From: Pyrobaculum oguniense TE7
GTDB taxonomy: Archaea; Thermoproteota; Thermoprotei; Thermoproteales; Thermoproteaceae
DNA length: 32,000 nucleotides
Direction of reading: 5' to 3'
Assembly (NCBI GenBank): GCA_000247545.1
Contig: CP003316.1
Location: 249,233 to 281,232 of the forward strand
The number at the start of each line of letters is the position of its first letter. Positions within the stretch are counted from its first letter, which is position 1. This document shows, piece by piece, positions 9,393 through 27,285 of the stretch. The position numbers and the translations under genes were made by a program. The notes below the pieces were generated by a model, which was given only the letters and a program-made list of their open reading frames with translations, was not told the DNA's origin and did no database searches.

Positions 9393-10058
9393 GTGAGGCT
9401 ACAAGTCGCGCTAGACATAACCGATATTAGAAAGGCGATACAGTTAACAAAAGATCTCTGCAAAGTTGGCCTTGAAGTAGTGGAGGTGGGCACCCCGTTG
9501 ATCAAGACGTACGGATTATCGTCTGTGAGCGCGGTGAAAGTAGCGTGCCCCAAAGCCGAGGTGGTCGCCGACTTAAAAACTGCAGACGTAGGTGCACTTG
9601 AGGCGCGGCTTGCCTGGGAATTCGGCGCAGACTGGGCTACGGTTATGGGCGCCACGAATATCGAGACAATAGAGGAATTCGTGAAAGAGGGAAGAGGGCT
9701 TGGTTTGAAAAGCATAGTGGATCTCATAGGTGTTCAAAATCCCGAAGCTAGGGCAAGAGAAATACTAGAGGTGGCACGGCCTGACATGTTTGTGGTTCAC
9801 CTCGGGATAGACGTACAGAAAAGAACAGGTCTTACGTTTGAAAATCTTCTGGATATTGCCGCTATAATTAAAGGCTTGGGAGTCGGCGTAGGGGTAGCGG
9901 GGGGTATCTCAGAGCGCGAGATCGAGCTTATTCTAAAAAGGGGGATCAATGTAGATGTGGTTATAGTCGGAAGGGCTATTGTCAACGATGCTTCTCCTCA
10001 GTTGAGATATGTAAATCTGAGTAAAGCTTTAAAAGAAGGAATTCGCAAAAGTTTATGA
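9393..10058 (+). CDS. OMP-decarboxylase suprafamily protein, 3-hexulose-6-phosphate synthase-like
   Basis: 221 aa with a GTG start. MRLQVALD and ADLKTADVG (D-x-K-x-x-D) are characteristic of HPS/KGPDC enzymes. Confidence 0.6.
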   Translation: MRLQVALDITDIRKAIQLTKDLCKVGLEVVEVGTPLIKTYGLSSVSAVKVACPKAEVVADLKTADVGALEARLAWEFGADWATVMGATNIETIEEFVKEGRGLGLKSIVDLIGVQNPEARAREILEVARPDMFVVHLGIDVQKRTGLTFENLLDIAAIIKGLGVGVGVAGGISEREIELILKRGINVDVVIVGRAIVNDASPQLRYVNLSKALKEGIRKSL

Positions 10059-12749: not shown

Positions 12750-13262
12750 CTATTTAAACGTTTTTTCGGTGGCGTATAGAGATCTGATCCTCTCCGTTGC
12801 ACCTATCTCCTCTAAGTACTCGGCCACTGCGGGGGGGACCATTTGTCTCCACTCATCACTTCCCTGGGCAATTAACGCCCTTATCGAGGTGGCGGAGTAC
12901 TCGCCGAAACGGGGATGGGTTCTGACCTCTATCCCCCAAAAGGAGAGGGCGGCCGCCACCCATGGGTTGTTGGAATAGACCACGTGGTGCTGGGGACACC
13001 AGTGGCGCAGATATGCACCCCAGAGACTCGTGGGGCCGTTAGTGTCCGGCACGGCGCAATAGAGGAGGCGGCAGTTGGCGCCAAAGTGCCTCCTGAACAT
13101 CTCAATTCGCTCACCTGGGGTGAAGGGGTTGTCCGCCGTTAGCGACTTATCCGCAGAGCCTATCGCGATCACCACTTCATCGTAGTGTGTAAGTAACCAT
13201 TCTACGACCTTTACGTGGCCCCAGTGGAGAGGTTGGAAGCGCCCTACTAACAGTGCCCGCAC
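12750..13262 (-). CDS. nadM: Nicotinamide-nucleotide adenylyltransferase (archaeal NMNAT)
   Basis: 170 aa with a GTG start. The VGRFQPLHWGH nucleotidyltransferase motif is present, and the size is typical of archaeal NMNAT. Confidence 0.8.
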   Translation of the reverse strand: MRALLVGRFQPLHWGHVKVVEWLLTHYDEVVIAIGSADKSLTADNPFTPGERIEMFRRHFGANCRLLYCAVPDTNGPTSLWGAYLRHWCPQHHVVYSNNPWVAAALSFWGIEVRTHPRFGEYSATSIRALIAQGSDEWRQMVPPAVAEYLEEIGATERIRSLYATEKTFK

Positions 13263-13300
13263 AGGTTTTGCTGAGCATCTTTTTTAAACTGTGTCTCTGG

Positions 13301-13360
13301 GCAAGTGATGAAGAGGTAGCTCGCGGCTGAGTATGAAGAGAGGCATACTGGCTGATCTAC
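13301..13360 (+). ncRNA. Box C/D sRNA candidate
   Basis: Read directly from the sequence. C box GUGAUGA 13305-13311. 15-nt spacer AGAGGUAGCUCGCGG. D' box CUGA 13327-13330. C' box AUGAAGA 13333-13339 (one mismatch). Exactly 12-nt guide GAGGCAUACUGG 13340-13351. D box CUGA 13352-13355. It lies in the only non-coding gap between nadM and speB, convergent on the speB 3' end. Confidence 0.55.
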
Positions 13361-13368
13361 TGGGTGGG

Positions 13369-14175
13369 TCACTGTTTTTGTAGGAGTGACGCCATGTGTA
13401 TGAGAAGTCTAGCTACCTTTGTGGCTGTTATGTCCGACATGTCGTTAGGCGGGGAGTATTCAACGATGTCCACGGCCACGGGTTTAAGAGTCAGCATGAG
13501 GTCCGCTAATAGGTATTCCAGTTTTTTGAAAGTGAGCCCCCCTGCTTCCGGGGTGCCGACGCCCGGCGCCTCGGAAGGGTCAAGGACGTCTATGTCTAGG
13601 CTTAGGTACACCCTCCCGGAGGCGGTCGACACGGCATCGGATACCACTTCTCTAGCGAAGTCGCTACCCCTGACTACGAAGAAGCCTGCCTCCTCTGCAT
13701 ATTTCCGCTCCTCGTCGTCATAGGCTCTCACGCCTATGTATATGGCGTAGAATCCGAGCTCCTCGTGGGCTCTCCGAGCGAAGGTGGCGTGCGAGAGCCT
13801 CTGCCCGGGAGGCCACTCGTTGCGGAGGTCGAAGTGGGCGTCTATATGCACGTAGGTATCGGGCTTGACGACTTTCAACGCGGCGTAGGTTACCGTGTGC
13901 TCCCCGCCGAGCATGAGAAAGGGCGGCTCCGCCTTCTGCAACGCCTTTTTTATCCTCTCCACGTTCTCCTCCGGCTTGCCTTGTAGCAACTCGACGTCGC
14001 CTAGGTCGCACAAGGGCTTCGCCACGTTGCCAAACAGCGTCGTATATTCAAGATACGGCAAAATCTGCCTTATCCTCTGGGGAGCAAAGCGCGTTCCTGG
14101 CCTGAAGCTCACCGTGTCCTCCATTGGCGCCCCAATTAGATTTACGTCGCCTTCACGGCAGATGGCTTTAAGCAC
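13369..14175 (-). CDS. speB: Agmatinase / ureohydrolase family
   Basis: 268 aa. The metal-binding motifs of the arginase/agmatinase family are present: HIDAHFDLR, GGEHT, SLDIDVLDPSEAPGVGTP. Confidence 0.8.
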   Translation of the reverse strand: MLKAICREGDVNLIGAPMEDTVSFRPGTRFAPQRIRQILPYLEYTTLFGNVAKPLCDLGDVELLQGKPEENVERIKKALQKAEPPFLMLGGEHTVTYAALKVVKPDTYVHIDAHFDLRNEWPPGQRLSHATFARRAHEELGFYAIYIGVRAYDDEERKYAEEAGFFVVRGSDFAREVVSDAVSTASGRVYLSLDIDVLDPSEAPGVGTPEAGGLTFKKLEYLLADLMLTLKPVAVDIVEYSPPNDMSDITATKVARLLIHMASLLQKQ

Positions 14176-16891: not shown

Positions 16892-17242
16892 ATGCCAGAG
16901 GATAAGGAAGTAGAGCGTGGGCGTAAGCTGTTGATACCGCCGTTCTTGACACCGCAACAAGAGAAAAAGGAGCAGAAAAAAGCCGAGCGTAGAGTGAAGA
17001 TCAAGGGCGAAGACGGCATAGGCGAGGGGGTTGCAAAAATTCCTCCAGATCTCTACGAGGCTTTAGACAAACCCTCCGAAGTGGAGGTGGTAGCACCTGG
17101 TGGATCGTCCCACGAAAGGAAAAAGATCTTCAAGGCGGTAATGAGCGATAAAATTCCCTCGGGGGAGATCCACGTATCTCCTGAGGATTTGAGAACTCTC
17201 GGGGTGGCGGAGAACACCGTCGTGACTATAAGAAAGAAATGA
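16892..17242 (+). CDS. Hypothetical protein with a Lys/Glu-rich N-terminus and a small beta-barrel-like C-terminal domain
   Basis: 116 aa. The ATG is 25 nt from the TATA box gtttataagg. The stop overlaps the endA start (ATGA). The C-terminus ...[24 protein letters not shown] resembles AbrB/VAT-N-like barrels (weak). Confidence 0.45.
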
Positions 17243-17790
17243 GGGGGGTCTTACGAGGGCTCGCCGTAGTTGTCAAAGACATAGAGTTTGGAAGGAGGTT
17301 ATACAAAGAGGGGTTTTATGGCCGTTTTCTTGGCTATGACAAGGTTAGGCGTGAGGAGGTCGACAGAATAAATGCGCCGCTCGTGCTTGCGCTTTACGAG
17401 GCACTTTACCTCGTCGAGAGGGGCGTACTAGAGGTTGTAACCGATAGCGGGGAAAAAATAACGCAGACGAGGCTAGTGGAGCTCGGCAGAGAGAAATTGA
17501 AAAATTTCGACGAGATTTACAAAATTTACAAGTACTTCCGGGACTTAGGCTATGTCGTGAAGAGCGGCCTAAAATTCGGAGCACTATTCTCGGTTTACGA
17601 AAAAGGCCCCGGCATAGACCACGCTCCTATGGTTGTGGTATTTCTCGAGCCGGATAAGGGCATATCGGCTACTGACATCACTAGGGGAGGGAGACTAGGC
17701 CACAGCGTCAAGAAGACCTTCACCTTGGCAACAGTGTTAAAAAATACGGGAGAGGTGATCCTCCTCGGCTTCTCGTGGGCTAGGCTTTAG
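17239..17790 (+). CDS. endA: tRNA-splicing endonuclease, catalytic subunit
   Basis: 183 aa. [26 protein letters not shown] carries the Tyr/His catalytic region of archaeal EndA, and SVKKT the Lys loop. Confidence 0.8.
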
Positions 17791-18173
17791 TCTATCTTAA
17801 GCTCGGCGACTCCGTACTCGCCCGCTTTGGCAATTACGATTTGCAATACCCCGTCTCTGTATATGGCCTTGGCGCTGTCGACTCTAAGCCTGAAGGGAAG
17901 CTCTATCTTTCTCGCCACGGGGAAGTTGGAAATCCTCTCCCTCCTAAGCGGTTTACCGCCTCCCTCGTACTGGGCGGGCGACGCCACCACTTCAACAGAT
18001 CTGTCGTATACTCTCACCTTTATGCTGTCTTTTCTCACCCCCGGCAGATCGACGTATATGACAAGGTTTTCGCCCAAGTCGTAAATGTCTACGTCTGGTT
18101 GCCGTTCTACCTTGCCCGCGTTGGAATCGTACAGCTCTTTAAGCCCCTCTTCTAATTTCTTGACAGGGTCCAT
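17787..18173 (-). CDS. Small heat shock protein (Hsp20/alpha-crystallin)
   Basis: Alpha-crystallin domain [25 protein letters not shown]...GVLQIVI. The start is moved to the ATG at 18173 (MDPVKK...), which is 23 nt from the TATA box. The track start at 18194 is a TTG inside the promoter. Confidence 0.8.
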
Positions 18174-18227
18174 GAAAAACGTGACTCGAAACAATAAAAA
18201 CTGGCGGCGGTATTATAAGAGTAGTTT

Positions 18228-18449
18228 TTACTTCCCCCCGGCTACCCCTATTACTTTGCCGTACATGTTTATCGGGAACGACCTGCCGCACTTGGGGCAC
18301 GTGATGCTAAACCCAATGTTGTACCAAGACTCGCCTATCTCCACGTCGAAAGTATGCTTGCAGTACGGGCATGTTGCTCTTACCTTCAGCGTTTTTTCTA
18401 GCTCGCCGCCTGAGTATTCCCAGTCTTCAGGGAATTCTTGCGCCACCAT
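18228..18449 (-). CDS. Zinc-ribbon protein, hypothetical (73 aa)
   Basis: CPYCKH...CPKCG. The ATG is 22 nt from the shared TATA box at 18466-18478. Confidence 0.45.
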   Translation of the reverse strand: MVAQEFPEDWEYSGGELEKTLKVRATCPYCKHTFDVEIGESWYNIGFSITCPKCGRSFPINMYGKVIGVAGGK

Positions 18450-18465
18450 GCCCCCACAGGATGCG

Positions 18466-18478
18466 AATAATATAAATT
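18466..18478. promoter_or_regulatory. Shared TATA box (aataatataaatt) for the divergent 73-aa ORF and the nitroreductase gene
   Basis: 44-nt spacer. The centre is about 22-23 nt from both starts (18449 and 18494). Confidence 0.5.
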
Positions 18479-18493
18479 CTTTGCTATTTAGTC

Positions 18494-19210
18494 GTGGATT
18501 TCTTCGAAGCGGTACATAGGAGGCGCTCTGTGAGGAAGTTTAAGCGAGCGAAAATCCCAGAGGAGGACATTACGAAGATTATGGAGGCGGGTAGGGCGGC
18601 GCCTACAGATGCCACACTCCACCTGTGGAGTGCGGTTTGGATAAGAGACGATACAAAGAAGGCAGAGATCTCAAGGCTCATAAATCAGCCACACGTCGAT
18701 GAGGGATCCGACTTCTTTGTATTTGTCGCAGATCTATACCGCCTAAGAGAATTGCTCAAATTCAGAAACCGCGAGATTGCTAAGAACAAAATATCGCTGT
18801 TATTATTCGCGGCGATCGACGCAGCATTGGCAGCCGAGAATATGGCCTTGGCCGCAACTGCCTTGGGCTACGGCAGTTGTTTTATAGGCGCCGTCCAGAA
18901 CGCCGTAGCAGAGCTTATCGATATGTTAAAACTGCCTCCTCTGACTTATCCACTTTTTGGGCTTGTCATAGGGATACCCAACGAGGATCCCCCACAGCGG
19001 CCTAGACTACCTCTAGATATGCTTTTCCACAAAGAGGAGTATAGGCCATATTCCGACATTCAGCTGGACCAAGCATATCAAATAATGGGGAAGATTACCA
19101 GGTCGGGAGACTGGCTAAGGCTACTAGAGCGCTACGCGGGTGCTGAAGGCTATTTCAACGAGAGAGGGCAAGTCCTAGTGGAGCTCTTGAGGAAGACGGG
19201 ATTTACGTAA
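18494..19210 (+). CDS. Nitroreductase-family flavoprotein
   Basis: 238 aa with a GTG start. It has the FEAVHRRRSVRKF N-terminal motif and the central helix pattern of the nitroreductase family. Confidence 0.75.
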   Translation: MDFFEAVHRRRSVRKFKRAKIPEEDITKIMEAGRAAPTDATLHLWSAVWIRDDTKKAEISRLINQPHVDEGSDFFVFVADLYRLRELLKFRNREIAKNKISLLLFAAIDAALAAENMALAATALGYGSCFIGAVQNAVAELIDMLKLPPLTYPLFGLVIGIPNEDPPQRPRLPLDMLFHKEEYRPYSDIQLDQAYQIMGKITRSGDWLRLLERYAGAEGYFNERGQVLVELLRKTGFT

Positions 19211-19240
19211 ATATTTAAAGATAGGCCGAGTTTCGGCTCT

Positions 19241-19582
19241 ATGGTTGCAATTAGGGGCGTAGTTGTTTCAAAGCAACTTGTCTACGACCCTGCCGGTACG
19301 AGGTATGTGAAGATCGACATAATTGAGGAGAAGGAGCTTCCAGGCCCCGTAGCTGCCTTTTCTGCACAAGATGAACAAGCGGCTCAGTTAATGCGGGAGG
19401 TTATGCCTCTAGTGACGCAGATAGTGCGCTCTCTTCCATTCGGTGGGGGCAAGATAACAGTGCCCCGAGTTACTCTCTGGCTCACTGATGAGGAGCTAGA
19501 GATATACGGCGATATTGATGTGGGAGATGTCGTAGCTATACAAGTAGAAGGTGGGACCGTTACTATCAAGCCAGAAAGTTAA
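19241..19582 (+). CDS. Arcadin-1-like protein (first gene of the crenactin cluster)
   Basis: 113 aa. It lies immediately upstream of crenactin, the position arcadin-1 occupies in the published Thermoproteales cluster. The call rests on synteny and size only. Confidence 0.55.
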
Positions 19583-19590
19583 AAAAGTAG

Positions 19591-20904
<1,314 letters not shown>

Positions 20905-20906
20905 CT

Positions 20907-21488
20907 GTGGAGTTTCCAAAACTACTGGTAATTAGGTACTTCTCTGAGACTCTCGGTATGAAGTTTGTGGGTGAGGAAGGAGATGTGTTGTGGTTTGAAG
21001 ATGGGCTGAACAAAGTGGCTGTGGACGTATACCTCTCAGAGGTGTACGAAGAGACAGAGCTCTACAAAAGAGTCGCAACGCTGGCGGGGCTCAACGCAAC
21101 GAAAACGTATCTGGCCGTGTTGCCAGACGGCTCGGCCTTCGTGGATCCTCGGTTTTTCAAAAACCAGGGGATAGGGCTGGTGCTGGTCGATCCAGCTGGG
21201 GGAGTTGAGATAAAGATATACGCAAAAGCCCGCCAGGCGCAAGTCCCAGTAGTGGATGTTAACAAAGTGGCGGAGGCGGTAAAGGCAGCGGTGCTTGAGT
21301 CCTTGAAGGCCGAGATTAAAGGTCTCGAAGCGGCTCTTCTAGATAAGCTTAAGAAGTACGTAGATCAGAGACTAGAGGAGTTCAGACGCCAAGCCGCGTC
21401 TCAGGCGCCGAGTCAGCCAGAGAGACAGACAGAAGCGCCGGCGTTGGACAACGAGTGGGTCAGAATTCTGAGATCCCGCAGTAGATAA
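20907..21488 (+). CDS. Arcadin-2-like protein
   Basis: 193 aa with a GTG start 3 nt after the crenactin stop. It has a helical Ala/Lys-rich middle and a short basic/hydrophobic C-terminus (NEWVRILRSRSR). Position and size match arcadin-2. Confidence 0.6.
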   Translation: MEFPKLLVIRYFSETLGMKFVGEEGDVLWFEDGLNKVAVDVYLSEVYEETELYKRVATLAGLNATKTYLAVLPDGSAFVDPRFFKNQGIGLVLVDPAGGVEIKIYAKARQAQVPVVDVNKVAEAVKAAVLESLKAEIKGLEAALLDKLKKYVDQRLEEFRRQAASQAPSQPERQTEAPALDNEWVRILRSRSR

Positions 21489-21513
21489 TATAAACCCCGG
21501 GACAATACTAGGC

Positions 21514-21684
21514 GTGGACATTCTCCTAGAAGAGGTCAGAAGGGCCTTTGGCAACACAGCCGAGGGCAAGTTGGCGGAGAGTCTTATTGAGGCGTATAGG
21601 GAGGGTGGGCCCCGCGGAGTGAGGAGAGCCTTACTCGAATACCTAAAGGCGCTGGGGGTGGATGTGGAGGATAGAGAGGATTGA
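21514..21684 (+). CDS. Small helical protein, arcadin-3 candidate (56 aa)
   Basis: Not in the ORF track. GTG at 21514, stop TGA at 21682-21684. Own translation: MDILLEEVRRAFGNTAEGKLAESLIEAYREGGPRGVRRALLEYLKALGVDVEDRED. The TATA-like ataatataaacc is centred about 24 nt upstream. It overlaps the arcadin-4 start by 23 nt in another frame. Confidence 0.45.
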   Translation: MDILLEEVRRAFGNTAEGKLAESLIEAYREGGPRGVRRALLEYLKALGVDVEDRED

Positions 21685-24046
21685 GCTGGAAAACTTCCGC
21701 TCCTACAAGGGGAGACATGTTGTGAGCCTAGGCGATGTGAACATACTGTGGGGGAGAATAGGGGCGGGTAAGACATCTCTCCTATACGCAGTAGAGTACG
21801 CCCTCTACGGGAGGCAATTGGAGGTCAAGGAAAGAGTCGCCAAGTTGCTAGACCTAATCAACGTCGAAGCTCACGAGATGCGAGTCTCCCTCGTCCTAAG
21901 CGATGGTGGGAGATTACTCGAGATAGAAAGGCGACTAGGGAGGCGCGGCGACGAAAAGATAGTGGTGAGAATCAACGGGGAAGAGCTCCGGGGGAGAGAG
22001 GCGGAAAGGAGGCTGGAGGAGCTGTTAGGCGCCGACGAAGATATCTACGAAAGACTCATCTACATATCGCATAGGACCCTAGAGGGCTTTATCTACGGGA
22101 CTTCGCAGAAGAGGTCGCTAACAGTAGATAGGCTCTTCGGTATCGATGTGATAGATAGCGTTGTCCGGGTTGTTTCGTCCGTTGAGAAGTCCCTTTTGGC
22201 CAAGGCCGAGGAGCTGAGGGGGAGGCTTGCGGCGTATGAGAAGTATAAGGAGGTGATCAGAAGATACGGCGGTTTCGCCGGCGTCAAGAAGCGCCTAGAA
22301 GACTTAACAAAAGAGGTAGAAACCCTGGAGGAGAGGGAAGCGGCGCTGTCTAGAGACGCAGAGGACTTAGCAAGAAAAAGAGCGGAGCACTTAGCCAAGC
22401 TGAGGGAGCACGAGTCTATGCTCCTTGAGTACTACAAGACGAGGTCGGAGCTAGAGGTTTTAGAAAGCGCCACAGAGGGAGGAACTTATGACTTGTCGAC
22501 AGTGGAAAAGCTGAGAGATGCGCTCAGAGAAGCCGTAGAGGAATTTGAACATGTCGTTGGCGAGGAGCTTGCCGAGAAGCTCTCAAAAGCGGGCGATGTG
22601 GAGTCGCTGTCTATTGCCATGATGGATGCGTACAACGCCCTGTCCAGGTTGCAAAACGAACTAGAAGCGCAGATTGCAGAAGCGAAAAAACTCTACGAAC
22701 AGTACTCGGCAAGAGTTAGGAAAATCGATGAGGAGATAGCCGAGGCACGGGATAGGCTGAGAAGACTTGAAAAGTACTACGCCCGTTTCAAGGAGTTGCA
22801 GAAGACTATCCAGTCAGTGGATTCGGCTCGCGCCTCGCTGGCGGAGCTTAGAAGACAGATTCAGACGTTGGAAAGAGAGGTTTCTTACTCCTCCGCGTTG
22901 AGAGTAGTGGCGCTCTACGCCGCGGAGACCGGGGCAGAAAAGTGCCCCATATGCGGCGCTCCTGTGCGGAAAGAGGATCTCCTTCGCCGTGTGGAGGAGG
23001 TGGAGGCTAGACACGGAACTCTCATCAAGGAGGTGGAGGAGCTGAAGGAGAGGGCTTCTCAGCTGGAAAAAGCCGTGGAAGAGGCAGAGGCGCTAAGCGG
23101 CGAGGTCGCGGAGTATCTAGCCGTGAAGACTAGATTAGAGGAGCTTGAAACCGAGAGGGAAGAGGCGGCAAAGAAGGCGTTGCAAGCAGAGAAATCCTTG
23201 AAACAGCTTGAAAAGAAGACAGAAAGGCTACGCTTGTTGCTGGCTAGAGTTGATAGAAGAACTATATCTGATACCCTCGCCAAGTATGGAAGGGCTGTAA
23301 GGATTAGAGAGTTACGTAAGCGTTTGAGAGAAATCGAGGACTCGTTGAAAAGGATTGGGATCACGAGCGATGTCATAAGCATTGATGTGAACTGGAGAGA
23401 GGTCGTAGAGGAGCTTGAAAAAACCTCGCGCAGACTCGCCGAGGCGTATAGAGAGAGAGCCCTCCTAGAAGAAGTTGTGAGAGAAGTCGGCGAAAATGCC
23501 GAGGCGTTGAAAAAGAAACTGGACAACGCCCTGTACGCCTATGGCAAATTGCAGGAGGTTAAGGCTAAGCTGGAGCTTGCCAAGATCAACGCGAGGGCGC
23601 GGCTCCTTGAAGTGGCCAGGAGCAGATTCAACGAGGTATTCACCTCTCTGTACAGATATGGCGACATCGTAAGGGTTGATGCCGACTTAGAACAGCGCAG
23701 GGGCTTCTACGACTTCCACGCCATAACTCCCAGCGGGGATAGATATGGAATCTCTAAGCTCAGCGACGGCCAGCGGCTCTCCATAGCCCTTGCCCTCGCG
23801 CTGGCGCTCCGGGATATTGCAAGAATAAACTTGGGATTTGTAATCTTCGACGAGCCGATCCCCTACGTGGATGTGAACATAAGAAGAGCCTTTGCCGAAG
23901 TGGTCAAGGCGCTGGCGAGCCGTTTCCAGATAGTTGTCGCTACCCAGTCGAGGGAATTCGCGGAGATGATAAAAGAAGCGGTCCCCAACGCGCTTCTCTT
24001 CAAGGTGGATAAAAAAGAGAGCTCCGAGGCAGTAGTGGAGTCCTAG
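21662..24046 (+). CDS. Arcadin-4-like Rad50/SMC-type coiled-coil ATPase
   Basis: 794 aa. MWRIERIELENFRSYKG N-terminus, Walker A GRIGAGKTS, about 550 aa of coiled coil with a central CPICG (Cys428/Cys431), ABC signature LSDGQRLS, Walker B FVIFDEP. Confidence 0.8.
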   Translation: MWRIERIELENFRSYKGRHVVSLGDVNILWGRIGAGKTSLLYAVEYALYGRQLEVKERVAKLLDLINVEAHEMRVSLVLSDGGRLLEIERRLGRRGDEKIVVRINGEELRGREAERRLEELLGADEDIYERLIYISHRTLEGFIYGTSQKRSLTVDRLFGIDVIDSVVRVVSSVEKSLLAKAEELRGRLAAYEKYKEVIRRYGGFAGVKKRLEDLTKEVETLEEREAALSRDAEDLARKRAEHLAKLREHESMLLEYYKTRSELEVLESATEGGTYDLSTVEKLRDALREAVEEFEHVVGEELAEKLSKAGDVESLSIAMMDAYNALSRLQNELEAQIAEAKKLYEQYSARVRKIDEEIAEARDRLRRLEKYYARFKELQKTIQSVDSARASLAELRRQIQTLEREVSYSSALRVVALYAAETGAEKCPICGAPVRKEDLLRRVEEVEARHGTLIKEVEELKERASQLEKAVEEAEALSGEVAEYLAVKTRLEELETEREEAAKKALQAEKSLKQLEKKTERLRLLLARVDRRTISDTLAKYGRAVRIRELRKRLREIEDSLKRIGITSDVISIDVNWREVVEELEKTSRRLAEAYRERALLEEVVREVGENAEALKKKLDNALYAYGKLQEVKAKLELAKINARARLLEVARSRFNEVFTSLYRYGDIVRVDADLEQRRGFYDFHAITPSGDRYGISKLSDGQRLSIALALALALRDIARINLGFVIFDEPIPYVDVNIRRAFAEVVKALASRFQIVVATQSREFAEMIKEAVPNALLFKVDKKESSEAVVES

Positions 24047-24106
24047 ATCAGAGCTCCAGACCATCTTCACCAATTCAGAGGACCCACTAAAAAGTCATCA
24101 CGGAAA
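24045..24106 (-). ncRNA. Box C/D sRNA; the D guide is complementary to the tRNA-Trp anticodon arm (predicted Cm34 guide)
   Basis: Minus-strand read: C box GUGAUGA (24101-24095), spacer CUUUUUAGUGGGUCCU (16 nt), D' CUGA (24078-24075), linker AUUG, C' GUGAAGA (24070-24064, one mismatch), 12-nt guide UGGUCUGGAGCU (24063-24052), D box CUGA (24051-24048). Ten consecutive Watson-Crick pairs plus one G-U form with tRNA-Trp nt 26808-26818. It lies in the 3' region downstream of the TrmB-family gene, and its D box ends 2 nt from the arcadin-4 stop. Confidence 0.7.
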
Positions 24107-24127
24107 TGGCTACACCTATATTAATAG

Positions 24128-24865
24128 CTATTTTGCCCTTTGCCATACGTTATAGAAGTACGTCTTGGCGATTTCCGCTATAAAACGCTCGTTGGAGTAC
24201 ACTCCTGATATCTCGCCGCTGTGCTTGACAAATATCAATACCGAGCCCCCTATGGCGCCCCCGCCGAACATCTCGGGGACTGCCCTTACCTCCACCCGGG
24301 GGGGCAGGTCAAACTTCGCCCTTAGCCGCACTGTAGTGAGCACCTTAATTGAAATACGCTTAGACTCCTCCACTATTGTGGCAAAAAGCCTGTAGGAGAT
24401 GAGTTCTTCGAAAGGAAGAGCTAGATATGCCTCAGTCTCGGCTTCGGACAACACCTCGTTGATCAAGTCGGAGACCCTCTCGGCGCCGCGTATTAGAGTG
24501 AGAAACGTCGACGTTGCCGCCGCGTATCTGGACTCATAGACTATCTGCAGGCTATCGAAAAACGGCTTCAAAGTCTTTAGAATTTCGGAAGTCTGCCTCA
24601 CTAATATTCTGTACACCTCCATCGGAGGTGTAGCTCTGAACTTAGCCGGGCGCGCTTCTCCTGTCGTTGTGATTAAGCCAAGTCTCTCCAGCCTTTGAAG
24701 ATGCACATATATCTTGGTGTAGGGTATAGCCAGCAAGTCGGATAACTCCCTAGCAGTCATCTCTCCCCTCTCCACAAGAGCTAGGTATATATCCACCTCC
24801 CTCTTCCCAATGCCAAAAGACGCCAGCACTTTGCCCAGCTGATCCACAGCAGTGTAAAAGCACAT
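24128..24865 (-). CDS. TrmB-family transcriptional regulator
   Basis: 245 aa. The N-terminal winged HTH (REVDIYLALVERGEMTARELSDLLAIPYTKIYVHLQRLERLGLI) is typical of TrmB. A C-terminal effector-type domain is also present. Confidence 0.75.
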   Translation of the reverse strand: MCFYTAVDQLGKVLASFGIGKREVDIYLALVERGEMTARELSDLLAIPYTKIYVHLQRLERLGLITTTGEARPAKFRATPPMEVYRILVRQTSEILKTLKPFFDSLQIVYESRYAAATSTFLTLIRGAERVSDLINEVLSEAETEAYLALPFEELISYRLFATIVEESKRISIKVLTTVRLRAKFDLPPRVEVRAVPEMFGGGAIGGSVLIFVKHSGEISGVYSNERFIAEIAKTYFYNVWQRAK

Positions 24866-24925: not shown

Positions 24926-26662
24926 ATGAGCAAGCAAGTTGCCGAGCTGGCGACAGTCTGCGAAGAGAAGCCGGGCAGACTCGTAGATTTGTCTAAGTAC
25001 AACCTACCTGAAAGGTACAAGACCACTCTCCTCAACGAGAAGTGGCAGACTACGTTGAAGAGGCAGTACGGCTTGCCAGCCCACACCAGAGTGGTTAAAG
25101 CAACTCTCTCCCTCTGCCCCGTCTGCAACACCAGAATACCCGCCGTGGTGTATGAAGAAAACGGCGCCATATGGATGAAGAAGAGCTGCCCTCACCACGG
25201 CGTCTTTGAAGACCTCTACTGGGGCGACGCAGAGATGTACTACTACTTCCTCCAGTGGGACCGCCCTGAGTACATCGCCAAGGGCCTCGCCAACCCATAC
25301 ACTGACCTGGAGTTTTACAAAGACATGGGCTCATGCCCCGAGGGCTGTGGTCTCTGCCCAGTCCACAAGTCCAACACAGTCCTCGCCATTATAGACGTCA
25401 CTAATAGGTGCAATATGGCCTGCCCCGTCTGCTTCGCAAACGCCGGTGCCGCAGGCTACGTCTACGAGCCCACGCTGGAGCAGATCGAGTATATGCTCAG
25501 GACGTTGAGAGCGCAGAAGCCGTGGCCGCCTAACGCCATTCAGATATCGGGAGGGGAGCCCACTCTCAGAGACGACCTGCCCGAAATAGTGAGGATGGCC
25601 AAGAAGCTCGGCTTCACCCACATAGAGATAAACACCAACGGCATAAGACTTGCTAATGATATTGAGTACTACAAGGCGCTTCTTGACGCTGGGATCTCTA
25701 CCCTGTACCTGCAGTTCGACACAATAGACGAGAAGAACGAGGGCGTCTGGAGGCACAGGCTCTACCACCCCAAGGCATACAGGATCATAAAGGAGAAGGT
25801 CATCGAAAACGCCAGGAAGCTAGGCCACCGCTCCATCGTCCTAGTGGTCACCCTCGCTAAGAACTACAACGACAAAGATCTCGGCAAAATAGTGGACTTC
25901 GCCATCCAGAACAGAGACGTGGTGAGGTGGGTAAACATACAGCCAGTGAGCTTTTCAGGCAGGGCCAAGCTATACAGCAAGGAAGAGCTTAGAAAGTACA
26001 GAATAACAATACCTGACACCATAATAGAGATAGAGAAGCAGACAGGCGGCGTCATTAGCAGGTGGGACTGGCGCCCCACCAATTGGCCAGTGGCACTAGC
26101 CAAAATGGTAGAGGCGCTGACCGATTCGCCCAAACCGCTCTTCTCAATGAACCCCATGTGCGGCGCCGCCACCTTTATCTACTACGACGAAGACGAAAAG
26201 CGGATATACCCCATCACCAAGCTGGTGGACGTAGACGCTTTCGAAAAAGGCGCCTGGGACATATACTACACCGCAGTGAAGGGCGGCATCCACAAACAGA
26301 CAGCCAAGGTAAAAGCCCTGAAGCTGTTAAAAGCAGTTAAGCACAAGAAGGTGAAAGACTTGATATACGACTTCTTGGTGAGGAAGGACTACGACTCCCT
26401 AGGCCGCTTCTTCTTCAACGTCGTAGGTATCGGAATAATGCACTTCATGGATACCATGAACTACGACATAGAGAGAGTACAGCGCTGCGACATACACTAC
26501 GCCACGCCCGACGGCAGAGTATTTCCATTCTGTACATACAACGTAGTAGGCCACCGCGAAAAGGTGGAAAGCTCATTCAAGGTAGATCCGAAAACCTGGG
26601 TTAAAGTCACAGGGCTCTCGCTAACAGGCTGGAACAAGCAAAAATTCGCCGAATTTAAATAG
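24926..26662 (+). CDS. Radical SAM enzyme, COG1964-type; possible tetraether lipid synthase (Tes/GDGT-MAS) homologue
   Basis: 578 aa. N-terminal Zn/Fe ribbon CPVCN...CPHHG, an auxiliary cluster motif CPEGCGLCPVH, then the radical SAM CxxxCxxC as TNRCNMACPVCF, plus GGEPTLR. The radical SAM call is solid. The Tes assignment rests on my recollection of the family's motif layout. Confidence 0.8.
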   Translation: MSKQVAELATVCEEKPGRLVDLSKYNLPERYKTTLLNEKWQTTLKRQYGLPAHTRVVKATLSLCPVCNTRIPAVVYEENGAIWMKKSCPHHGVFEDLYWGDAEMYYYFLQWDRPEYIAKGLANPYTDLEFYKDMGSCPEGCGLCPVHKSNTVLAIIDVTNRCNMACPVCFANAGAAGYVYEPTLEQIEYMLRTLRAQKPWPPNAIQISGGEPTLRDDLPEIVRMAKKLGFTHIEINTNGIRLANDIEYYKALLDAGISTLYLQFDTIDEKNEGVWRHRLYHPKAYRIIKEKVIENARKLGHRSIVLVVTLAKNYNDKDLGKIVDFAIQNRDVVRWVNIQPVSFSGRAKLYSKEELRKYRITIPDTIIEIEKQTGGVISRWDWRPTNWPVALAKMVEALTDSPKPLFSMNPMCGAATFIYYDEDEKRIYPITKLVDVDAFEKGAWDIYYTAVKGGIHKQTAKVKALKLLKAVKHKKVKDLIYDFLVRKDYDSLGRFFFNVVGIGIMHFMDTMNYDIERVQRCDIHYATPDGRVFPFCTYNVVGHREKVESSFKVDPKTWVKVTGLSLTGWNKQKFAEFK

Positions 26663-26664
26663 GA

Positions 26665-26670
26665 TTTTTT
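26665..26670 (+). terminator. Oligo-T tract (T6) 3 nt after the radical SAM stop codon
   Basis: ...aaatag ga tttttt ctcg. Archaeal RNAP terminates at oligo-T runs. Confidence 0.4.
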
Positions 26671-26777
26671 CTCGCAAATTATCCTACATCTCATCAGTGA
26701 TACCAGTATGAAAGAGTGTCCTATCGGCAAGGACAGATAGCAAAAAACATAAATACACAACAACCACAATCTTGCAC

Positions 26778-26854
26778 GGGCCCGTAGCTCAGCCAGGCAG
26801 AGCGGCGGGCTCCAGACCCGTAGGGCGGGGGTTCAAATCCCTCCGGGCCCACCA
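26778..26854 (+). tRNA. tRNA-Trp (anticodon CCA), intron-less, with genomically encoded 3' CCA
   Basis: Cloverleaf folded by hand. Acceptor GGGCCCG/CGGGCCC. D arm GCUC-AGCCAGGCA-GAGC. Anticodon arm GCGGG-CUCCAGA-CCCGU, anticodon 26812-26814. Variable loop AGGGC. T arm GGGGG-UUCAAAU-CCCUC. Discriminator A, then CCA. The TATA box cataaata is centred about 26 nt upstream. Confidence 0.9.
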
Positions 26855-26903
26855 ACTTATCTTCCTAAACACAGAGAGTTTTGGTAGAAAACTGCTGGTT
26901 TAA

Positions 26904-26957
26904 TCAGCGTGATAACCGCCAAGTCACTCATCTTTAATCCCCGAGACTTCATCACAG
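26904..26957 (-). ncRNA. Weak small-RNA candidate (C/D-like boxes or a hairpin) with its own TATA box
   Basis: Minus strand: the TATA box ttataaa (26976-26982) lies 20 nt upstream of GUGAUGA (26955-26949), and CUGA (26907-26904) lies 41 nt further downstream. There is no credible D'/C' pair. GUGAU/AUCAC and AAGUC/GACUU can instead pair into a hairpin. Confidence 0.25.
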
Positions 26958-27045
26958 TCCTCCACGGCGCTTTGGTTTATAAGACATAGCACCGATGTTG
27001 CGTGTGATGAGTCTCACGGTAAGCGAGAGGTCTGCACAACGCCCT

Positions 27046-27285
27046 TCACCGACCTCCCAGCAGTCTTTTCAAGTATTGTAATAACTCGCTGGCTTCTTCT
27101 TCGTCTAGGTGGCCTACGCCGAGTTGCTTAGCGAGCTCCCTATCGCCGACGACGAGGACGATCTTTTTGTCGATAGAAACAAGTTCTTCGGCTTTTATCG
27201 CCCTCACCCCGGGGAACCTCATCCACTCCTCAGGAGGCTCTTTATTAAAAACTATATAGATCTCCACATGTGCCTTTACATCCAC
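27046..27285 (-). CDS. Hypothetical protein (79 aa)
   Basis: Last ORF of the acd/AKR/GNAT co-directional gene string. No recognisable motif. Confidence 0.4.
   Translation of the reverse strand: MDVKAHVEIYIVFNKEPPEEWMRFPGVRAIKAEELVSIDKKIVLVVGDRELAKQLGVGHLDEEEASELLQYLKRLLGGR

Follow-up and report, generated by a model that had tools for sequence, protein, structure and literature searches.

A box C/D sRNA of Pyrobaculum oguniense regarded as sR26: a predicted guide to C34 of tRNA-Trp with a putative second contact on the precursor

The 32,000-nucleotide stretch of the Pyrobaculum oguniense TE7 genome analyzed here (contig CP003316.1, positions 249,233 to 281,232; hereafter, the window) carries on its minus strand a complete box C/D small RNA (sRNA), located between the convergent genes for arcadin-4 and a TrmB-family regulator. 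This RNA is very probably the P. oguniense copy of sR26, and its D guide is predicted to direct 2′-O-methylation of C34, the wobble base of tRNA-Trp (Cm34). Both the family and the C34 target in tRNA-Trp are already known, having been published in 2018 (PMC6009581). The residual interest lies in the second guide of the RNA, the D′ guide, for which a pairing with the 3′ acceptor strand and trailer of tRNA-Trp is predicted that we have not found reported.

The D guide and C34 of tRNA-Trp

The key features of an archaeal box C/D sRNA, terminal C and D boxes and internal D′ and C′ boxes on either side of a short K-loop, are all present in this element (Table 1). Guide spacers in such RNAs measure about 12 nucleotides (nt), and the D guide is exactly 12 nt long, while the D′ spacer, at 16 nt in P. 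oguniense, is longer than canonical. Upon re-reading of the minus strand, the boxes, the AUUG spacer and the 12-nt distance from C′ to D agree with the architecture that a first-pass annotation of this DNA had described. A regular-expression scan for the full C/D′/C′/D layout returned two sites in the window, 24048-24101 and 13305-13355, and none in 100 shuffles. The sRNA folds less stably than its shuffled versions (z = +1.53), as is expected for the open guide regions of a guide RNA. The second complete layout, on the plus strand at 13305-13355, reads GTGATGA-N15-CTGA-GTA-TGAAGA-N12-CTGA and falls in the gap separating two minus-strand open reading frames (ORFs; 12750..13262 and 13369..14175). 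This site probably belongs to a further sRNA already in the Pyrobaculum catalog.

The D guide can pair with G30-C40 of tRNA-Trp through ten Watson-Crick (WC) pairs and one G-U pair, the wobble being formed by U at guide nucleotide 1 with G30. Nucleotide 5 of the guide is a G (24056) that stands opposite C34 (26812) in a Watson-Crick pair, and the wobble base thereby occupies the N+5 position. The 10-mer GCTCCAGACC occurs exactly twice in the window, once as the complement of the guide (24053-24062) and once as G31-C40 of the tRNA (26809-26818); shuffling leads to an expectation of 0.07 matches, and 0 of 100 shuffles reach two. Among 20000 shuffled D guides, 17 match the pairing with tRNA-Trp that is observed. 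The ten WC pairs, the terminal G-U and the register on C34 that had been read in the first-pass annotation are thus reproduced from the sequence and the 10-mer search, its chance estimate of about 0.06 for the 10-mer is close to the value obtained by shuffling, and its description of the tRNA-Trp gene as intron-less agrees with both ARAGORN and Rfam.

Orthologous intergenic regions were collected by way of arcadin-4 from P. aerophilum (Pae; locus L081), P. islandicum (Pis; L084), P. neutrophilum (Pne; L086), a Par-like genome (L089), Pyrobaculum sp. WP30 and seven metagenome-assembled genomes (MAGs); P. oguniense and P. calidifontis are abbreviated Pog and Pca. One Pyrobaculum MAG contig (L003) was left out because a run of N at ~9800-9900 lies exactly at the expected sRNA site. 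In all 12 genomes recovered, a C/D sRNA resides directly after arcadin-4 on the opposite strand. The alignment of orthologs, a check proposed in the first-pass annotation, reveals that boxes and D guide are conserved in 12 or more genomes of Pyrobaculum: a D spacer of 12 nt is kept throughout, and the D-guide core GGUCUGGAGC is nearly invariant, with GGGUUUGGAGCG as the Pae variant. There is free variation in the flanks, in the D′-C′ loop and in the 5′ portion of the D′ spacer, and the C-to-D′ spacer measures 15-18 nt in the sR26-type orthologs. The sRNA is kept after arcadin-4 even in Pis, though the TrmB gene is no longer adjacent there.

It might be supposed that box-like motifs have fallen into this arrangement by chance, in the gap of two convergent genes and with no RNA function. 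The motifs are short, which is the sole point in favor of such an explanation. Against it stand the shuffles, which never yield the full layout and rarely the 10-mer match, and the fact that the location, boxes and guide of the element are maintained throughout the genus next to non-coding bases that differ. This possibility is negligible, being effectively refuted by conservation.

The predicted target is constant as well. The tRNA-Trp gene was retrieved from six lineages through its neighbors, the genes for GNAT and ACS-beta, and in each of the six the anticodon arm GGCGGGCUCCAGACCCGU is identical. The D guide therefore fits everywhere, with 9-10 WC pairs and C34 at N+5.

By analogy with archaeal C/D small ribonucleoproteins (sRNPs), the sRNA would assemble with L7Ae, Nop5 and fibrillarin. 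The 12-nt D guide would then pair with G30/G31-C40 of tRNA-Trp(CCA), and C34, opposite guide nucleotide 5, would be the residue that is 2′-O-methylated. Cm34 is documented in the tRNA-Trp of S. acidocaldarius, H. volcanii and T. kodakarensis, and its proposed role is to stop C34 from reading UGA (PMC7668247). Conceivably, the sRNA could bind tRNA-Trp as a folding chaperone alone, with C34 methylated by a protein-only enzyme or carrying no methyl group, and guide-target pairings that occur without methylation are indeed discussed for some Pyrobaculum sRNAs in PMC6009581. Such a role is improbable, however, given that N+5 is a Watson-Crick G-C pair in every ortholog, that the D spacer is exactly 12 nt and the boxes canonical, and that Cm34 is present in the tRNA-Trp of other archaea.

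The assignment to sR26 follows from comparison with the catalog of Lui et al. (2018; NAR 46:5678, PMC6009581), which describes 110 curated C/D sRNA families from six Pyrobaculum species, P. oguniense included, and reports small-RNA-seq generated for P. oguniense as support for the sRNA catalog. There, "sR26:C34Trp" is listed, and position-34 guides have one tRNA target each, as would result from the uniqueness of the anticodon region. Table 1 of that paper contains the entry "Pca sR26a, transposed, D′ guide shared with sR26 D guide". The locus orthologous to the window sRNA in Pca (L082) has the guide AGGUCUGGAGCU after a C-like box, GUGGUGA, and lacks a CUGA downstream; this arrangement is the transposed form and agrees with the published entry. 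The window sRNA thus shares with sR26 its genus, a species within the catalog and the predicted target, C34 of tRNA-Trp. It has Pyrobaculum orthologs recognizable by both sequence and synteny, the transposed Pca form among them, and the sRNA itself shows no difference from the published description. It is regarded as the sR26 representative in Pog and, effectively, as the sR26 gene of that species. The guess that it may correspond to an already catalogued Pyrobaculum family has therefore proved apt, and, because sR26:C34Trp is in the catalog, its identification as a Cm34 guide is not new. Bernick 2012 makes no mention of Trp or sR26.

Overall, the central claim of the first-pass annotation, a stand-alone C/D sRNA with C34 at N+5, is supported by the sequence, by conservation in at least 12 genomes and by the published sR26:C34Trp assignment. 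The recovery of a published guide-target pair by a reading of raw sequence has value as a positive control.

Table 1. Coordinates of the sRNA, its predicted tRNA contacts and the flanking features in the window
Feature	Position	Strand	Basis or remark
Box C/D sRNA, C box to D box, regarded as Pog member of sR26	24048..24101	-	Box layout, orthologs, literature
C box GUGAUGA	24095..24101	-	Sequence; RUGAUGA-like in orthologs
D′ guide CUUUUUAGUGGGUCCU, 16 nt	24079..24094	-	nt5 = G at 24083
D′ box CUGA	24075..24078	-	ACGA, GUGA or CCGA in some orthologs
Spacer AUUG, 4 nt, between D′ and C′ boxes	24071..24074	-	
C′ box GUGAAGA	24064..24070	-	Sequence
D guide UGGUCUGGAGCU, 12 nt	24052..24063	-	nt5 = G at 24056, opposite C34
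D box CUGA	24048..24051	-	Sequence
tRNA-Trp(CCA), intron-less, CCA encoded, predicted substrate	26778..26854	+	ARAGORN and Rfam; single gene in window
D-guide target G30-C40, C34 at 26812	26808..26818	+	Pairing
Proposed D′-guide target G67-C74 (3′ acceptor strand, A73, C74)	26845..26852	+	N+5 = C70 at 26848; G69 at 26847 = G-U wobble
Arcadin-4 (SMC-like ATPase) gene, convergent with sRNA, conserved synteny anchor	21662..24046	+	
TrmB-family regulator gene, upstream of sRNA, same strand	24128..24865	-	ORF; Pfam TrmB on orthologs
A/T-rich TATA-like stretch CTATTAATATA	24117..24127	-	16-26 nt upstream of C box; read by eye

A putative D′ contact with the 3′ acceptor strand

Nucleotides 2 to 9 of the Pog D′ guide (GUGGGUCC) can pair with G67-C74 of tRNA-Trp through 7 WC pairs and 1 G-U. 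Comparable pairings are found in the other lineages (Table 2), and this D′ core is 100% paired in the five that can be aligned, with two pairs in which guide and tRNA have both changed. Of 500 shuffles, one attains the covariation score, and sliding the register leaves only 24-54% of positions paired. When every D′ guide is set against every tRNA-Trp, each fits its own at least as well as those of the other lineages; the guides of Pis and Pne are the exceptions, in that chance pairing with the trailer gives them a higher score on the MAG genes that lack an encoded CCA. Ten other tRNA genes of the same genomes form at most 7 pairs with the D′ guides. Taken species by species, shuffling of the D′ guide yields p values of 0.0005-0.04. 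The link between sRNA and tRNA is firm in the complete genomes and in 21I_056, where both lie in the same MAG assembly; it is indirect for the DRTY8 type (identical marker proteins that co-occur in samples ERZ28593179 and SRR18577005) and for S1_Bin (matching contig naming).

Table 2. D′ guides and the tRNA-Trp 3′ region with which each is proposed to pair (a slash precedes the bases that follow where CCA is not encoded)
Lineage	tRNA-Trp 3′ end	D′ guide	Pairing
Pis, Pne	GGCCCCA-C	GUGGGGCC	8 WC
Pog, Par-like	GGGCCCA-C (C69>G69)	GUGGGUCC (nt4 G>U)	7 WC + 1 G-U
MAG 21I_056	GGCCCCA/UGUA, CCA not encoded	AUGGGGCC (nt9 A, not G)	8 WC
MAG S1_Bin	GGCCCCA/UUUA, CCA not encoded	AAAUGGGGCC	10 WC
DRTY8/KC015 type	Divergent T-stem and acceptor stem	ACGUAGGGGU, quite unlike the others	8 WC with C61-G68 (CCCCUACG), N+5 = C64

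On these grounds we lean, by a small measure, toward a real and selected interaction between the D′ guide and the 3′ strand of the acceptor stem or the trailer. It also seems slightly preferable, judging from the pairings, to view sR26 as a guide that makes two contacts with precursor tRNA-Trp, as opposed to a single-guide sRNA with an orphan D′ guide. In such a complex, the D guide would hold the anticodon loop for formation of Cm34, while the D′ guide would grip G67-C72, the discriminator A73 and the next base (C74 or the first trailer U residues), with C70 at N+5. Where CCA is not encoded, that next base is a trailer U, and so the partner would be the precursor of tRNA-Trp; the contact would be expected to precede removal of the trailer and formation of the acceptor stem. 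The favored role for the D′ contact is that of an auxiliary anchor, which would open a GC-rich precursor and add specificity, rather than that of a strictly site-specific methylation guide, because the register shifts by 6 nt in one lineage (C70 versus C64) and the C-to-D′ spacer measures 15-18 nt rather than 12.

Several points weigh against a functional D′ contact. The 16-nt D′ spacer departs from the 12-nt spacing reported to be optimal for methylation by archaeal C/D RNPs, and the pairing at position 70 needs an acceptor stem that is unfolded. The D′ duplex is GC-rich and short (8 bp), with shuffle p values of only 0.01-0.04 for Pog, Pis and Pne taken singly. The covariation amounts to three events, and two of the sRNA-tRNA links are indirect. 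In addition, sR26 is not placed among the dual-guide, same-tRNA families listed in the main text of PMC6009581.

The last of these points, together with the report in the same paper that ~80% of tRNA-targeting Pyrobaculum sRNAs have one target-less guide, and with the modest p values of the single species, also speaks for a different explanation, in which the D′ guide has no target or is directed at some other RNA (for example, an rRNA site containing GGCCCCAC) and its fit to the 3′ end of tRNA-Trp is a GC-rich coincidence. We consider this unlikely, if by no means negligible. The D′ core is conserved genus-wide and is therefore under selection, and each of the three departures of the D′ guide from consensus is accompanied by a corresponding change in the tRNA-Trp gene of that lineage; moreover, the change from G to U at nucleotide 4, beside N+5, would not be expected if the conserved target were in rRNA.

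A third explanation had been raised in the first-pass annotation, namely that G37-U43 is the site of D′ pairing and C39 the residue to be methylated, as in the euryarchaeal tRNA-Trp intron, whose D′ guide does target position 39 (PMC7994747). The count on which it was based holds, since the Pog register comprises 5 WC and 2 G-U pairs with C39 at N+5, and the Pog-specific U at nucleotide 4 improves the pairing by matching A38. As the target of the D′ guide, however, position 39 is not supported: this pairing is weaker than the 7 WC plus 1 G-U formed with the acceptor strand, and in all other lineages nucleotide 4 is a G opposite A38, a mismatch beside N+5, despite an identical anticodon arm. 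Those same guides form 8-10 uninterrupted WC pairs with the 3′ acceptor strand and track its changes. Of the pattern that defines the intron guide, D on C34 and D′ on 39, the C34 half is found in the sRNA, the pairing at 39 being weak in Pog and interrupted in other species, and the dual 34/39 assignment is quite improbable. A separate guide for position 39, (C/U)GGGUCU beside a D-like box, was not found in ~0.3 Mb of Pyrobaculum loci, an amount too small to be informative.

The D′ pairing with the acceptor strand or trailer does not appear in the main text of PMC6009581. In that study, mature tRNAs were scanned and nine WC pairs were generally required, which would explain the absence. If the D′ pairing is true, some orphan guides of tRNA-targeting sRNAs would have precursor targets that were missed, because published searches covered mature tRNAs with a 9-bp cut-off. 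It would also mean that C/D sRNPs can engage a pre-tRNA before 3′ processing, and that the second contact is selected for binding or unfolding (or for Cm70/Cm64) rather than for a fixed modification site.

Genomic setting of the sRNA and of tRNA-Trp

Upstream, the sRNA begins 26 nt past the stop codon of the TrmB-family ORF, and it is therefore not situated within the 3′ region of that gene, where the first-pass annotation had placed it. Downstream, a single base (24047), not two, separates the D box from the stop codon of arcadin-4 (24044-24046). The 794-aa SMC-like protein encoded there matches a P. oguniense TE7 protein with 100% identity and is 62% identical to P. calidifontis arcadin-4. 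It belongs to a conserved crenactin cluster (window ~17000-24046; loci L081-L086) that contains arcadin-1, crenactin, two small genes and arcadin-4 and is closed by the sRNA; this cluster is a reliable anchor for the finding of orthologs.

The A/T-rich stretch at 24117-24127 could be the sRNA's own promoter. Most orthologs also have A/T-rich elements upstream of the C box, the DRTY8 type being without them. In the DRTY8/KC015 lineage (L004, L098, L005), the C box (GUGAUGA) shares bases with the stop codon of the TrmB-family gene that precedes it, which leaves no space for a separate promoter and suggests that the sRNA is co-transcribed with that gene and processed from the 3′ end of its mRNA. 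A promoter and terminator scan found nothing, but its models are of bacterial type and do not apply to archaea.

In two distant Thermoproteales MAGs, L011 (~13215-13300, plus strand) and L012 (~13205-13290, plus strand), a guide to C34 of tRNA-Trp, GGGUCUGGAG(C/U)U, comes directly after a canonical C box, in the D′ position. A small GC hairpin, GGCG-CGCAU-CGCC, stands in place of the D′/C′ motifs in both, and the element lies ~830 nt downstream of the arcadin-4 homologue. Just downstream of arcadin-4 in L008 (Thermoproteaceae archaeon Bin S10) is a C/D sRNA with the D guide GGGGGUCAGGGA, which is related to the family guide and is no longer complementary to the CCA anticodon loop, and which thus appears to be a diverged or re-targeted copy.

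The guide had been described in the first-pass annotation as lying near its target. The distance of 2.7 kb is correct for Pog, but the proximity does not carry meaning, as the sRNA and tRNA-Trp are separated on the same chromosome by ~330 kb in Pis and ~160 kb in Pne (record coordinates). Outside the Pog/Par lineage, no tRNA was found within 10 kb of arcadin-4 and the sRNA in 16 loci. The short distance, confined as it is to the Pog/Par lineage, points to a lineage-specific rearrangement and not to a feature of the system. The tRNA-Trp gene is located at a synteny breakpoint (window 26660-27050): a radical-SAM gene adjoins it in Pog and in the Par-like genome, and its neighbor in Pis, Pne and the MAGs is ACS-beta. 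In Pae, searches with ARAGORN, Rfam and motifs near the ACS and GNAT genes did not find tRNA-Trp. The gene is absent there from the radical-SAM and the ACS-beta neighborhoods alike, and PaREP2 elements are close by.

Introns interrupt tRNA-Trp at unusual positions in part of the group. Pne and two MAGs have introns of about 17-20 nt in the variable region (L091 8692-8785, which is Pne; L093 7697-7790; L092 10707-10800), and the DRTY8 type has a 20-nt intron in the D arm (L094/L095, minus strand) that was missed by ARAGORN. C/D boxes are absent from these non-canonical introns, and tRNA-Trp is intron-less in Pog, the Par-like genome and Pis.

Relation to other wobble-position guides

Other stand-alone guides to position 34 include those of Pyrococcus for tRNA-Leu and tRNA-Met and the Pyrobaculum families sR27, sR45 and sR46. 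Like sR26, these act in trans and place N+5 at the wobble base; they differ in having other tRNAs as targets, and most are reported with an orphan second guide.

At gathering thresholds, Rfam yielded no family for the sRNA, either from the window itself or from the loci of Pae, Pis, Pne and Pca. The best match to the Pog sRNA is RF01133 "sR3", with 30.4 bits (E = 5.7e-6), below the gathering score of 41. A pattern derived from the RF01133 consensus retrieved 27 metagenome loci (L101-L127), and every match interrupts a tRNA-Trp gene, with G37 on one side and A38 on the other; at these loci RF01133 scores 58-63 bits and is nested in the tRNA match (for example, L122 203-339). RF01133 is thus the box C/D intron of the euryarchaeal-type pre-tRNA-Trp, a relationship that its family name obscures. 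Its D guide spans the junction of exon 1 and intron with C34 at N+5, and its D′ guide spans the junction of intron and exon 2 with C39 at N+5. The euryarchaeal intron guide had been named in the first-pass annotation as the analog of the sRNA, and the closest Rfam family has turned out to be that very intron.

An sR3 is mentioned in PMC6009581, and RF01133 "sR3" was considered as a Pyrobaculum paralogue. That identity was rejected, all 27 loci being euryarchaeal-type tRNA-Trp introns, and RF01133 "sR3" need not equal the Pyrobaculum "sR3" of the catalog. Common descent of sR26 and the intron is likewise not supported: the other sR26 orthologs score 19 bits or less against RF01133 or have no match, and so the resemblance is best accounted for by shared boxes and a guide dictated by the same target, not by demonstrated homology. 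It is explained most simply as convergence on one target.

The intron guide, known as Pyrococcus sR50 or as the Haloferax intron guide (Clouet-d'Orval 2001 and Singh 2004, as cited in PMC7994747), nevertheless shares with sR26 a D guide that has C34 of tRNA-Trp at N+5, and the core UGGAGC-N-CUGA is common to both. Under the proposed pairing, sR26 would further resemble it in contacting a second site on the same precursor and in acting before maturation is complete. The two differ in that the intron resides inside the tRNA-Trp gene, whereas the Pog sRNA is a separate gene, and in that the second site of the intron guide is position 39, whereas that of sR26 is proposed to lie on the 3′ acceptor strand or trailer. 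If the D′ contact is real, sR26 would be the stand-alone functional counterpart of the euryarchaeal intron, which also grips its precursor twice, and crenarchaeal stand-alone guides and euryarchaeal intron guides would have a common two-contact logic on tRNA-Trp.

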